Shown here: piece after piece, positions 56,361 through 60,915 of the stretch | How the letters are laid out: each line of letters opens with the position of its first letter | Position numbering within the stretch: position 1 is the stretch's first letter | Assembly (NCBI RefSeq): GCF_030013595.1 | Contig: NZ_CP122768.1 | DNA: 64,000 nt | DNA from: Escherichia coli | Lineage (GTDB): Bacteria; Pseudomonadota; Gammaproteobacteria; Enterobacterales; Enterobacteriaceae | Strand: one strand, 5' to 3' | Notes under the pieces: generated by a model | Seen by the model: only the letters and a program-made list of their open reading frames with translations | What the model was told of the DNA's origin: nothing | Database searches by the model: none | Made by a program: the position numbers and the translations under genes

Positions 56361-56570
56361 GTGATACCTGCCATCAGGTGTTCGTGCAGCGGGCCATAAC
56401 CCGCAGTCGGGAGTTGAACGCCTGACGACAGGAAATGAGCCAGAGCAGCGACCACGCGGGCTGACAGTGAGTCAGAACCTGAATCAGCCCGGAGCCATTC
56501 CCGGGGCTGTACTTCATCACCTGCCATCAGTACCCGTGTCAGTACTTCGCGACCTGACGCAATTACCCGA

Positions 56571-56870
56571 CTCAGTTCTTCAGAACCCGCCTCCGATACC
56601 AGCCTGGCGGTCGCCCCTGTGCAACAAAATAAATCAACCATCGTCAGACGGTGATCAATCGTATGCGCTGCCAGTGGCTCGCCTGAAAAATGCGTCAATA
56701 TGAGTTCGCCGGAACAATACCTCAGTTCTTCAGAACCCGCCTCCGATACCAGCCTGGCGGTCGCCCCGGCGCAACAGAATAAATCAACCATCGTCAGACT
56801 GCGATCATTCGTATGCATCGCTGATGATGCGCCCGAAAAACGCGTCAATATGAGTTCGCCGGAATATTAC
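56571..56870 (+). repeat. Tandem direct duplication, 2 x ~150 bp, ~85-90% identical by eye
   Basis: Unit begins CTCAGTTCTTCAGAACCCGCCTCCGATACCAGCCTGGCGGTCGCCCC... at 56571 and again at 56721. Confidence 0.8.
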
Positions 56871-57243
56871 TGACGACACGGTTTGTAGTTACGTTCCTTC
56901 GGTGAGTGAGTACCTGTGCGTCAGGGTAACGCAATCAGTTCAGGTTTAGCGGGGTGTCAAGTCGGTTTGGCTAACCGACCGCAGAATTAACTGTACCTTT
57001 AAAGGTCGCCCCCGATATATCTGCCTGTCAGACATATCGCCGATTCGGTATCTCACTACATAAAACTCCTTAAAAAACAATGCGATTCTGTTGGTACGAA
57101 GCTTTCAGTAAGTCAGTCCGGAGAAGCGCCAGTACGATACAGAATGAGGTTGAAAAAAACGTTCACGTCTGGTCACTTCTTCAAATGTTAAAAAACATCT
57201 CGTAAAGAGCCAGTTTATGCGGGTTCGTTGAGTAGACGTGCGA

Positions 57244-57282
57244 GCGTCACTTTGTCAGCTTTAACGCTGACGAAAGTGACGC
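57244..57282 (+). repeat. Near-perfect 16-bp inverted repeat with 6-nt loop (strong stem-loop) in a ~1-kb ORF-free region
   Basis: GCGTCACTTTGTCAGC - TTTAAC - GCTGACGAAAGTGACGC (one bulged G). Confidence 0.6.
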
Positions 57283-57582
57283 CCGCACAGCTTCAAACTC
57301 CACATGCACACGCAAGCGACCAAATTTCAAATGGTCTTATGCCGTGCGCACAGTCATAAGAAGCGCATGCGGAAAGTCAGAAAATATCTTAAGACGCAGA
57401 TTTTAAAGGCGTTTTTATGCCAGTCTGCCGGGAATACACAGTAGTCCGGTTGTCCGGAAGCACCACGGTAATCCGAAGGAAAAATCAACGTACCTCAATC
57501 ACCGTAGTGATATCCGTTCCCAGAGGCTAAACGGATGTACCACCATAAAGGCATCCTCTTTCAGGCTACGAGGATATTGCAA

Positions 57583-57671
57583 TCACCCGAAGGCGTTTCT
57601 CTCAGATTGCTGAAACATTGGCTGGCAGTCACCCGAAGGCGTCCCTCTCAGACTGCTGGAACATTGGCTGG
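57583..57671 (+). repeat. Tandem direct repeat, 2 x 43 bp separated by 3 bp
   Basis: TCACCCGAAGGCGTTTCTCTCAGATTGCTGAAACATTGGCTGG / TCACCCGAAGGCGTCCCTCTCAGACTGCTGGAACATTGGCTGG. Confidence 0.8.
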
Positions 57672-57826
57672 TCGCAAAAGCGACAGTTAATGCAAATACA
57701 GGTTAACAAAAAGGGAAATCTGCCGTCAACCCAACCATATGAACATGTTGATTTCATTATGAATGTGATGTTCTAATATAAATTAATCAGTAACTTCATA
57801 AAAAGAATATAAGAAACAGATAATGC

Positions 57827-58564
57827 ATGTATTTACACACATATCAGCACAATGATAGATTACCACCCCAGAAACACGATAAAGGTATAATTATGGAATT
57901 TTCCGTTATTTTTTTCTGGGTTATCACTGGTCTTATTACCATCTTATTCTTAAAATCAATAATAACCGATCTAATAAAAAACCTAAACAAAACAGACATA
58001 GCGTTATATATATTGGCATTTTTATCAGCCGGATATACATTCCAGTATATTTACAATGACAATATATTTTCAGAACTATGGGGAGTTGGCCTGTTTGTTA
58101 CTCTGATAGTACTGAATATAGTATTTAATCTCTTTTTTAGACTCTTATTCATTCTCTCGAAAATGATATTAATGTCACGACATATAAGAAAGATGCAAAA
58201 AAAACTAAAACAGACGTCTGTGCCTGATTTTATTTATTATTCAATAGAAAAACACAACAAATATCCCATATATGTATTACACATGCCATCAAACAATATA
58301 ATTGAAATAGGCTACAATATAATAAACACCGATCTGGTCATTGGCGAAAAAATTCATTTCAGGACACTAAGCAATCGTTCTTTATATTTTAACCTCACCC
58401 AACCCCCATTAATCGCGACAATAAAAGATGATGTGTTTTGCACTCTTCATGATTACTATAACCACAATAATGAAACGAAATCCACTATTGACAATTACAT
58501 ATCAAAAATAAAGGATAATCATAATACCCCATGGTTATTAAACAACGAAAATGTTCAGGAATAA
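57827..58564 (+). CDS. Hypothetical membrane protein in very AT-rich DNA
   Basis: 245-aa ORF with several hydrophobic helices; start may be the internal Met (MEFSVIFFWV); extreme AT-bias makes a chance ORF less likely but not excluded. Confidence 0.35.
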   Translation: MYLHTYQHNDRLPPQKHDKGIIMEFSVIFFWVITGLITILFLKSIITDLIKNLNKTDIALYILAFLSAGYTFQYIYNDNIFSELWGVGLFVTLIVLNIVFNLFFRLLFILSKMILMSRHIRKMQKKLKQTSVPDFIYYSIEKHNKYPIYVLHMPSNNIIEIGYNIINTDLVIGEKIHFRTLSNRSLYFNLTQPPLIATIKDDVFCTLHDYYNHNNETKSTIDNYISKIKDNHNTPWLLNNENVQE

Positions 58565-58716
58565 AAAAAGAGACAATTCCCGAGATAAAACAAAAGAGCA
58601 TAAACATATGAACCGGAAATTCTATTTCAAAAATATCCTGTGGGGAATGTGCCCCATTATAATATCCATATTGCATCTGATATATGACACACCAACAGAA
58701 GGGTAATGACTCCAAC

Positions 58717-59220
58717 TTACTGATAGTGTTTTATGTTCAGATAATGCCCGATGACCTTGTCATGCAGCTCCACCGATTTTGAGAACGACAGTGACTTCCG
58801 TCCCAGCCTTGCCAGATGTTGTCTCAGATTCAGGTTATGCCGCTCAATGCGCTGAGTATAACGCTTGCTGATAACGTGCAGCTTTCCCTTCAGGCGTGAT
58901 TCATACAGCGGCCAGCCATCCGTCATCCATACCACGACCTCAAAGGCCGACAGCAGGCTCAGAAGACGCTCCAGTGTGGCCAGAGTGCGTTCACCGAAGA
59001 CGTGCGCCACAACCGTCCTCCGCATCCTGTCATACGCGTAAAACAGCCAGCGCTGACGTGATTTAGCACCGACGTAGCCCCACTGTTCGTCCATTTCAGC
59101 GCAGACAATCACATCACTGCCCGGTTGTATGCGCGAGGTTACCGACTGCGGCCTGAGTTTTTTAAGTGGCGGAAAATCGTGTTGAGGCCAACGCCAATAA
59201 TGCGTGCACTGGCGCGACAT
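58717..59220 (-). CDS. insB: IS1 InsB (transposase frame)
   Basis: 167 aa, near-identical to copy A InsB. Confidence 0.9.
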
Positions 59221-59414
59221 CCGACGCCATTCATGGCCATATCAATGATTTTCTGGTGCGTACCGGGCTGAGAGGCGGCGTAAGTGAACTGTAGTTGCCA
59301 TGTTTTACGGCAGTGAGAGCAGAGATAGCGCTGATGTCCGGCGGTGCTTTTGCCGTTACGCACCACCCCGTCAGTAGCTGAACAGGAGGGACAGCTGATA
59401 GAAACAGAAGCCAC
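59139..59414 (-). CDS. insA: IS1 InsA
   Basis: 91 aa, near-identical to copy A InsA. Confidence 0.9.
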
Positions 59415-60020
59415 TGGAGCACCTCAAAAACACCATCATACACTAAATCAGTAAGTTGGCAGCATCACCAACAGAAGCATCGATAAAAGTTGACTTATTT
59501 CTGATACTCAGTGGCCTGGCCCTTCCTTGTTCAATATACCTGACAAAAACAATCACACTAAAATACACATCCATATCATTCTGGAAAAAACCTCTTTTCT
59601 GGTCTTATGGTATATATCATTTTCATCTTGTTTATATAATGACATGTATAGTTTTAGCAATACCTTCTGCAATTATCGTTTTATTCTTTCACTTTTATCA
59701 AAACATCACCAGAAACTGGAAGTGACAACCGCAATAATGAACATAAAAAGGCAAATCAGAATGGCAGTAAATCAATAAAGTACCATTTCATATGAATCAT
59801 CAGAAAAACGGTGGACGCGACATCCAGCACGAGGCAAAACACAGCAACAAAATAAGCCGGATATCGCGCCCTGTACTTTTCTAACTCAACTCCCGGCATT
59901 GTGCAAGTTTTAATCGCAGGTGGATTCAGAGCCACGCCCCCATTGATTCAGCCTGAAGACACGTATATCCTTGGAGAAAGCAGGAATCTCATTGCTGTGA
60001 AATTCCTTACAGAATCTTCA

Positions 60021-60044
60021 GCCCCATTTTATGGGGCTTTTTTT
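60021..60044 (+). terminator. Candidate rho-independent terminator (plus strand)
   Basis: Hairpin GCCCCATTTTATGGGGC followed by TTTTTTT. Confidence 0.4.
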
Positions 60045-60651
60045 GGTGCCCCCACGCTGTTACCACACTTTCGGGATGCGAATAAAAAAGCCCACAGTTT
60101 TTACACTGCGGACTTTTGTTTTTTCTTTGTGATTTGTGTGCAAGGGTGCGACTTTCGACCGAACCTTTGGCAACCGGATAGCGGGGACTGTTGTCCCCGC
60201 TGCGGTTTCTTACGGTTTACACTGCAAGAACGCCGCAATTTCCGACCACATGAAGCTTACCCTGAATTCACACGGTGATGCGTGTAACACCCAGACGGTC
60301 AGCAACATGGTCAGGCATAACATGCCCACAATGATCGTTTTTTGCGGCATAGCACTTGCTCCTTTTACAGAGAGGCGCTAACCTTCCACTTGCTGAAGGT
60401 AGATGGTCAGGGCCTCGGGTTAACGTTTAAGTTGACTCGGGGCCTTTCCACATCCGGCCTTCAGGTAATCCTTCCAGCCGTCAGCCGAAAGGCACCCGCG
60501 CGTAATGTACTGGTTTTCAGAGAGGTCCGCAATCTTCCGGTGACGAGATCATCTGCACACGCCCCGGTGGGACGGGCTAACGGTATATTCAGGTGCAGGA
60601 TCTCTCTGTCTGGTGCGTTTTTAAATTGTCAAACGCACCCTGGCGGCAAAA

Positions 60652-60915
60652 TCAGCCACCTTTTTTCGCATCAACAAAACGCCCAAAACGCTGGGTAAAG
60701 CGTGCAACATTACCTTCTGAAGCGACAGTTCTCAGTTTACCTGTATAAAACGGATGCGACTTAGAAGAAACGTCAATTGTAACATATGGGTAAGTTACAC
60801 CATCCAGTTCAATTACCCGGTCAGTTTTGATCGTCGAACCGATCCTGAAGTACTCATCAATACTGGTATCGTGAAATACTACTGTACGGTATTCCGGATG
60901 GATATTCGGTTTCAC
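60652..60915 (-). CDS. ykgM: 50S ribosomal protein L31 type B (zinc-independent paralogue)
   Basis: 87 aa [33 protein letters not shown]...HPFYTGK; no CxxC zinc ribbon, as expected for the Zur-regulated paralogue. Confidence 0.85.

Follow-up and report, generated by a model that had tools for sequence, protein, structure and literature searches.

A STAXI- and EFASI-bearing non-coding kilobase of enterohaemorrhagic Escherichia coli as the probable relaxase-less remnant of an SGI-4-like mobilisation module

We analysed a non-coding stretch of about one kilobase (56870-57830) in Escherichia coli assembly GCF_030013595.1 (contig NZ_CP122768.1); all positions are those of the window, by which we mean the whole 64,000-nucleotide (nt) stretch of the contig that was examined. 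Our main reading, to which we assign a probability of roughly 0.7, is that this region is a relaxase-less remnant of the oriT (origin-of-transfer) module of an MPF_G integrative and conjugative element (ICE) of the SGI-4 (Salmonella Genomic Island 4) kind, stranded in the tellurite-resistance/adherence island (TAI) of enterohaemorrhagic E. coli (EHEC). We are confident of the identity of the parts, of their fixed linkage in relatives to a gene of the Integrase_1/MOB_M family, and of the loss of that gene in the window. From these we infer that the window copy could act as an oriT and that RNA may have some role in transfer.

The proposed model is as follows. On the minus strand the module consists, in order, of a predicted promoter, the STAXI RNA motif, two small hairpins, a core with the inverted repeat GGCGTCACTT...AAGTGACGCC, and an EFASI-type element; in intact elements the gene for a predicted MOB_M (Pfam Integrase_1) relaxase comes next, followed by a second STAXI and anti-restriction genes. 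In the window, an IS66-family remnant replaces everything from ~100 nt upstream of the relaxase gene onwards. By analogy with Salmonella Genomic Island 1 (SGI1), the relaxase would recognise the inverted-repeat core as the origin of transfer, and a transcript of ~790 nt would run from just upstream of STAXI through the core into EFASI, forming a structured RNA that may aid relaxosome function or control relaxase expression. The window module would then be, at best, a cis-acting orphan oriT, usable if a related element supplied the relaxase and the secretion system in trans.

The region sits in the TAI (SpLE1/OI-43-48 type) of EHEC. Its 961 bp are 100% identical to the chromosomes of O157:H7 and other EHEC serotypes, and a copy is found at ≥80% coverage in 572 of 5426 complete genomes. 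An annotated identical copy has ter genes on one side, urease genes on the other and IS66-family remnants around it. A preliminary description of the window, made from the sequence alone, had drawn attention to an open reading frame (ORF)-free kilobase here, and the longest complete ORF within 56870-57830 is indeed 52 amino acids (aa). By itself this is weak evidence, since 10% of random sequences of the same composition (first-order Markov) also lack an ORF of ≥60 aa. The same description had remarked that the region is not AT-rich like its neighbours, and the GC content (0.45-0.49, vs 0.29-0.35 in the adjoining 57800-58600) agrees.

Structured RNA was among the earlier suggestions for this stretch, and covariance-model searches support it. 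STAXI (Rfam RF01728) is matched along the full model (1-153/153) with 134.3 bits (gathering score 40.5; E = 8.6e-30), far above the Rfam threshold, and an EFASI-type element, slightly below its own threshold, follows 476 nt downstream on the same strand (Table 1). STAXI is a motif of tandem H-type pseudoknots with UUCG loops (Weinberg et al. 2010, PMC2864571; Rfam RF01728). The window copy has two canonical units and one degenerate unit, with pseudoknot and outer stems that covary between units and loci; the most conserved unpaired stretch in every unit is CCAAUG. The tandem repeat reported earlier is the first two of these pseudoknot units: the repeat itself is there (89% identity), with a period of 46 nt and not the 43 bp first given. 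The minimum-free-energy z score of STAXI (-0.3) is uninformative since pseudoknots are not modelled. Folding of both strands, as had been proposed, showed that the EFASI-type element beats shuffled sequences on the gene-sense strand only (z = -4.0 on the minus strand vs -1.3 on the plus strand). Its orthologues in two of the intact loci described below (L006 and L008) each score 55.0 bits.

The two small hairpins directly 3' of STAXI are likewise supported by base-pair conservation. The ATCCGTT/AACGGAT hairpin, already noted as a second inverted repeat, folds with z = -3.0 and shows compensatory changes in relatives. Across 11 sequences the two helices are 95-96% paired, and 4 and 3 pairs, respectively, are changed on both sides. 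Upstream of STAXI we predict a sigma-70 promoter: in our reading, the pattern TTGAC[GA]-N17/18-TAnnnT recurs at a fixed distance from STAXI in ~18 of 22 loci whose flanks are otherwise unalignable. Judged from this pattern, the module promoter would drive transcription from a start near 57693. Evidence for a transcript, a point on which the preliminary description had hung its proposal, comes from published work: the 'STAXI' and 'EFASI' primers match the window exactly and give amplicons of the published sizes, and reverse transcription-quantitative PCR (RT-qPCR) on DNase-treated vesicle RNA from a Shiga-toxin E. coli strain was positive for both segments (PMC12370729).

Between STAXI and EFASI lies the candidate oriT core, which is the best-conserved block of alignment A2. 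The near-perfect hairpin first placed at 57244-57282 is real and is the perfect part of a larger inverted repeat, whose 16-nt arms (57238-57253 and 57273-57288) are 94% complementary and enclose an inner 6-bp stem (57254-57259/57266-57271). Its folding energy is -42.5 kcal/mol, with z scores of -9.8 (minus strand) and -6.9 (plus strand); 0 of 200 shuffles were as good. The arms GGCGTCACTT and AAGTGACGCC are invariant: the outer 10 bp never vary, and a one-base bulge on the 5' arm comes next. The inner stem differs between families yet stays paired, and the hairpin folds in 60 instances. Over the four specified hairpins of the 11-sequence alignment, 12 pairs are changed on both sides; of 500 shuffles, 0 attained this number. 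Rfam gave no match for the large hairpin or the sequence around it. We also considered a Xer-like multimer-resolution site for the inverted repeat, which is unlikely given a spacer of 17-22 bp that is itself base-paired with compensatory changes.

Intact MPF_G ICEs of E. coli carry divergent copies of the region (72-85% identical), as do plasmids of Pantoea, Serratia, Klebsiella and Salmonella. In ten ICE and plasmid loci (L005-L014) the same arrangement is seen on one strand: MPF_G transfer genes, STAXI, a central region of 430-530 nt, EFASI and a gene of ~300 aa annotated as an 'integrase domain-containing protein', after which come a second STAXI, hypothetical genes, and ArdC or ArdA. This layout, with STAXI, the inverted repeat and EFASI, recurs in pSGI4, the circular form of SGI-4. 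In two small Rep_1 plasmids of the pKYM-like kind, the sole cargo is the module, which extends from STAXI to shortly before the gene, while their 2.1-kb relatives lack it; such sole-cargo plasmids fit a self-contained cis-acting unit such as an oriT. In the IncK2/Z plasmid L004 (4772-7427), the module is apparently split by IS100 (IS21-family) between STAXI and a weak EFASI match, and this large plasmid would thus hold a further decayed copy.

The protein encoded after EFASI matches Pfam Integrase_1 (1.6e-53) and Phage_int_SAM_2. The E. coli homologue in L006 is 53.6% identical to the pSGI4 protein WP_033567157.1, which has been named as a seed of MOB_M, a class of tyrosine-recombinase-like relaxases that includes TcpM of pCW3, MobK of pIGRK and MpsA of SGI1 (preprint 10.64898/2026.01.13.699239). 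The pSGI4 protein also resembles, at 26% identity (E = 5e-10), the MpsA-like protein encoded in an SGI1-family locus (L138) that we recovered through a published primer sequence. NCBIfam and PHROGs gave weak XerC and integrase matches, and no solved structure was matched by sequence. We assign the cognate protein of the homologous regions to MOB_M on these similarities, with relaxase as its predicted function.

The linkage of hairpin and gene was followed with an exact-pattern scan (GGCGTCACTT-N15-25-AAGTGACGC, one genome per species), which matched at least 120 stretches; by our estimate ~24 would be expected by chance for 19 specified bases in the scanned collection. Among the matches listed, an Integrase_1-family gene starts 274-528 nt downstream of the hairpin at 48 enterobacterial loci, with one outlier at 1000 nt, and the hairpin is upstream of the gene start in every linked locus. 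Of 33 genome-scan loci searched for EFASI, 32 have an above-threshold match between the hairpin and the gene; these loci include a compact class with the gene start ~300 nt from the hairpin; STAXI is frequent there, not universal. The other matches, in Acidimicrobiia and further phyla, are unrelated palindromes whose flanks differ and which have no gene linked to them.

Some of these loci have features of their own. In Xenorhabdus ehlersii (L032-L041) and X. mauleonii (L085-L092) the unit of hairpin, EFASI and Integrase_1-family gene is present in up to at least 10 copies, and these multiplied compact units suggest a family of small mobilisable islands. A Ner-like ORF comes next in one compact unit (L034), and several compact-class loci among those scanned have C4 antisense RNA or isrK close by. 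In some compact elements the radC RNA motif (Rfam) is upstream of the hairpin, in the place that STAXI takes in others (L022, 2665-2802; L031, 1503-1643).

In the window itself, homology to the intact elements stops at a breakpoint at 56870, ~100 nt upstream of the expected start of the relaxase-like gene, and beyond it is IS66-family debris. To the right of the module, ICE-derived DNA continues to ~60863, 87-89% identical to the ICE L007 and interrupted by IS1. The window copy is flanked by an IS66 remnant and, at its other end, by a hypothetical gene rich in AT, with no DNA-handling or anti-restriction neighbours of STAXI. The earlier idea of a 'decayed element' accordingly fares differently in its two senses: as a lost protein-coding gene it is not upheld, while as the mobilisation module of a conjugative element after loss of the relaxase gene it probably stands.

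A recent preprint places the oriT of MOB_M systems between the secretion-system operon and the relaxase gene, and lists O157:H7 TAIs among relaxase-less islands with a predicted oriT_rM6 that is ~60% identical to the localised SGI-4 oriT (10.64898/2026.01.13.699239). In our comparison, the window module and the pSGI4 intergenic region are 54% identical, with STAXI, the hairpin and EFASI in register.

Table 1. Positions of the module features and of the last homologous bases in the window
Feature	Position	Strand	Details
Predicted sigma-70 promoter	57700-57729	-	-35 TTGACG 57724-57729; 18-nt spacer; -10 TAACCT 57700-57705
STAXI RNA motif	57534-57685	-	5' hairpin 57671-57684; pseudoknot units 57625-57670 and 57579-57624; degenerate third unit 57535-57578
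Two small conserved hairpins directly 3' of STAXI	57498-57536	-	ATCCGTT/AACGGAT 57512-57536 (arms 57512-57518 and 57530-57536); ATCAC/GTGAT 57498-57511
Conserved core, candidate oriT core	57238-57356	.	Small hairpin GACCA...TGGTC 57318-57336; large inverted repeat 57238-57288
EFASI-type element	56905-57058	-	RF02957, 48.9 bits (gathering score 51.2), E = 1.3e-7, full model 1-133
Final bases with homology to the intact elements (CCGTGTCGTCAG)	56870-56881	-	Alignment A3 with L006, L008 and L009

The DNA around the module holds several further features. A 150-bp tandem repeat (56571-56870, partly also 56380-56570; 87% identical) ends exactly at the breakpoint. It occurs in over half of the complete E. 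coli genomes, adjoins a transposase remnant in K-12, and is probably the end of the IS66-family remnant. On the other side, the AT-rich gene (57893-58564, plus strand; GC ~0.30) faces the module and is kept beside STAXI in the ICE L007; a hypothetical gene is similarly placed in L010. The IS1 (58702-59472) splits ~3.6 kb (57270-60863) and is absent from the otherwise identical O157:H7 locus L001. Further right are a Hok/Gef ORF (60210-60350, minus strand), with a sok-like match upstream (60339-60497; 50.5 bits vs a gathering score of 59), and beside it a paralogue of the type B L31 ribosomal protein (60652-60915), an arrangement that is syntenic with the ICE L007.

Two other explanations deserve the most weight, although we regard each as unlikely. 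The first is that STAXI and EFASI are free-standing, trans-acting small RNA (sRNA) genes that work on host or island mRNAs, have no role in transfer and are near the gene incidentally. An sRNA was among the suggestions of the preliminary description. Both are typed 'Gene; sRNA' in Rfam, RNA of both was detected in vesicles (PMC12370729), strand-specific RNA-seq showed STAXI in Pectobacterium (PMC4710047), and both are retained without the downstream gene in the window and in the small plasmids. Incidental proximity is difficult to reconcile, however, with the strict order and strand of STAXI, hairpin, EFASI and gene in >40 loci from many genera, in which EFASI ends shortly before the gene. Moreover, the upstream comparison gave one shared promoter position for the module and no separate promoter for EFASI, and 15 years of literature have proposed no target.

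The second, which we hold to be about as improbable, is that the module is only the 5' leader or regulatory region of an operon for the relaxase and anti-restriction proteins, with no oriT, and a functionless relic in the window. All of the structures are in gene sense and between the conserved promoter and the gene; the inverted repeat could be an autoregulatory operator; and a long hairpin, deleted in the window, is found between EFASI and the ribosome-binding site in L006 (7920-8005) with equivalents in L008 and L009. A leader without an oriT would nevertheless have to be squared with the preprint, in which the TAI region is taken as equivalent to the oriT of SGI-4 that was localised by experiment (10.64898/2026.01.13.699239), and with the position of the oriT just upstream of the relaxase gene in 3 of 3 characterised relatives (SGI1, pIGRK and pCW3). 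Nor would it account for the two small plasmids that have the module as sole cargo without the gene, and the compensated inner stem argues for a hairpin or cruciform and not for a flat double-stranded operator.

That the repeats act as folded single-stranded DNA (as a single-strand initiation site, a single-strand origin or an Frpo-like promoter) is a much poorer fit, and we consider it very improbable. The possibility was raised for STAXI in view of its DNA-handling neighbours (Weinberg et al. 2010, PMC2864571), and it gains from the presence of the module on Rep_1 rolling-circle plasmids and beside anti-restriction genes typical of leading regions. The base pairs, however, point to RNA. Over the three stems of each of 16 distinct canonical STAXI units, drawn from intervals that Rfam defines, the non-Watson-Crick pairs on the gene-sense strand are 24 G-T and 0 A-C. 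A TTCG loop closed by C-G, which stabilises RNA but not DNA, is found in 16 of 16 units, and one G-T pair is invariant within the 3-bp inner stem. The rolling-circle intermediate, assumed to be rep-sense, would carry the complement of STAXI, with the wobble pairs becoming A-C mismatches. Folded as DNA, STAXI is no better than shuffled sequences (z = -0.5). A single-strand origin of the small rolling-circle plasmids was rejected for the same wrong-strand wobble pairs and because the 2.1-kb relatives replicate without the module; the pC194-type nick sequence CTTGATA was not found in L002. These patterns would have STAXI act as RNA rather than as single-stranded DNA, which agrees with the argument of Weinberg et al. 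(2010).

The last alternatives, decay of a protein-coding gene or a retron msr/msd that lacks a reverse transcriptase, were both raised in the preliminary description and can be all but discarded: although the opposite strand of some relatives has 'hypothetical protein' ORFs in RefSeq, and frames of 100-155 codons free of stops, comparison of the homologous regions gave no common ORF (the annotated ORFs are at different places, that of L007 overlaps STAXI, two overlapping frames are open together in L002, open frames are broken between close relatives such as the window and L007 or L009 and L006, and conservation tracks base pairs, not codons), and the annotation of the identical RefSeq locus has no reverse transcriptase within 9 kb, nor was any retron RNA family matched.

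Several observations weigh against our interpretation of the region as an orphan mobilisation module. A consensus promoter scan flagged no promoter on the minus strand; the -10 box matches the consensus at only 3 of 6 positions, and the scan missed the predicted promoter because of this weak box. The EFASI match is below the gathering score (Table 1), for which reason we call the element EFASI-type and not a certified member, and the vesicle RT-qPCR was not strand-specific (PMC12370729). The relaxase activity of the Integrase_1-family clade is predicted, and SGI-4 also encodes a TraI-like (MOBH) relaxase (PMC6543542). The EHEC genomes among the matches listed have a single copy of the region and no ICE-type copy, so that the helper would usually be absent and the orphan may be inert; the 100% conservation of the region may reflect recent spread only. 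Finally, the SGI1-like locus L138 gave no STAXI or EFASI match at E ≤10 and no nhmmer match with a profile of the module, so homology of either motif to the sgm-sRNA region was rejected in both covariance-model and profile tests, and for the RNA part of the mechanism the analogy is one of placement and layout only.

The locus itself is not new: STAXI and EFASI have been on record as orphan RNA motifs since 2010 and 2017, and a predicted orphan oriT in the TAI was flagged by the preprint. A link between STAXI or EFASI and MOB_M relaxases was not found in the searchable literature, and this connection appears to be the one new lead of the analysis. Through it, two Rfam motifs that lacked an explanation and a conserved hairpin that had not been described are joined, in fixed order, to the Integrase_1/MOB_M family. 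The further step, in which STAXI and EFASI would be RNA components of the MOB_M mobilisation module, made as one transcript with EFASI as the functional counterpart of the SGI1 sgm-sRNA, is drawn by analogy and is tentative; we would put it at less likely than not. If it is true, relaxosomes assisted by RNA would be widespread in chromosomal conjugative and mobilisable elements of a very abundant class, as a general trait. For the window, an odd non-coding kilobase is explained as the ordinary wreckage of a conjugative element, and the reading supports the recent proposal that EHEC tellurite/adherence islands could be moved by SGI-4-like elements through an orphan oriT. SGI-4, or the small plasmids that carry only the module, offer a tractable model in which the 15-year-old question of STAXI function becomes directly testable.

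Compared with the Rfam families, the window STAXI differs from other members in context only: it is a full-length match, with a 5' hairpin and tandem H-type pseudoknots with UUCG loops, and in relatives it shares its strand with the neighbouring integrase-like and anti-restriction genes, whereas in the window these usual neighbours are deleted, with no structural difference. The EFASI-type element aligns to the full RF02957 model and is placed downstream of STAXI as the family description states, but its score is under the gathering score and the downstream integrase-like gene is absent from the window. With the SGI-4 oriT and oriT_rM6, the window region shares the TAI island type, and its counterpart in the helper ICEs is the first intergenic region upstream of the MOB_M gene. 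It differs in that the preprint region was defined by sequence clustering, without mention of STAXI, EFASI or the hairpin, and in that the window keeps ~3 kb more ICE-derived DNA to the right.

Among other systems with tyrosine-recombinase-like relaxases, MobK of pIGRK and TcpM of pCW3 (PMC8152469) are likened to the present case by layout and not by sequence: an RNA component is not reported for them, but an inverted-repeat origin is just upstream of the relaxase gene in both. The closest parallel is SGI1, where the P5 promoter (TTGACG-16-TAATAT) drives a 650-700 nt RNA through the oriT (PMC9299015). That oriT is 125 bp and rich in inverted repeats, a hairpin is beside the start of mpsA, and the 3' domain of the RNA, the sgm-sRNA between oriT and mpsA, is essential for mobilisation (PMC6414798, PMC9299015). 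At the sequence level, all that the module shares with the SGI1-like region is the 12-mer GACCAGCCAATG (E = 0.26) and CGCCTTCGG. In the sgm-sRNA core domain of L138 (4003-4050), a hairpin is followed by GACCAGCCAATG, which equals the 12 bases after the 5' hairpin of STAXI (window 57657-57668); the match is statistically weak, and we regard it as suggestive.

SGI1 has no tandem pseudoknot repeats, and the requirement for the RNA has been shown for SGI1 only. The two modules otherwise have much the same architecture: a homologous tyrosine-recombinase-like relaxase (at the identity given above for pSGI4 and L138); a TTGACG promoter ahead of a long (~700-800 nt) gene-sense RNA, inferred for the window, that crosses an origin rich in inverted repeats; a structured RNA domain that separates this origin from the relaxase gene; and, in the intact relatives of the window module, a hairpin near the start of that gene.

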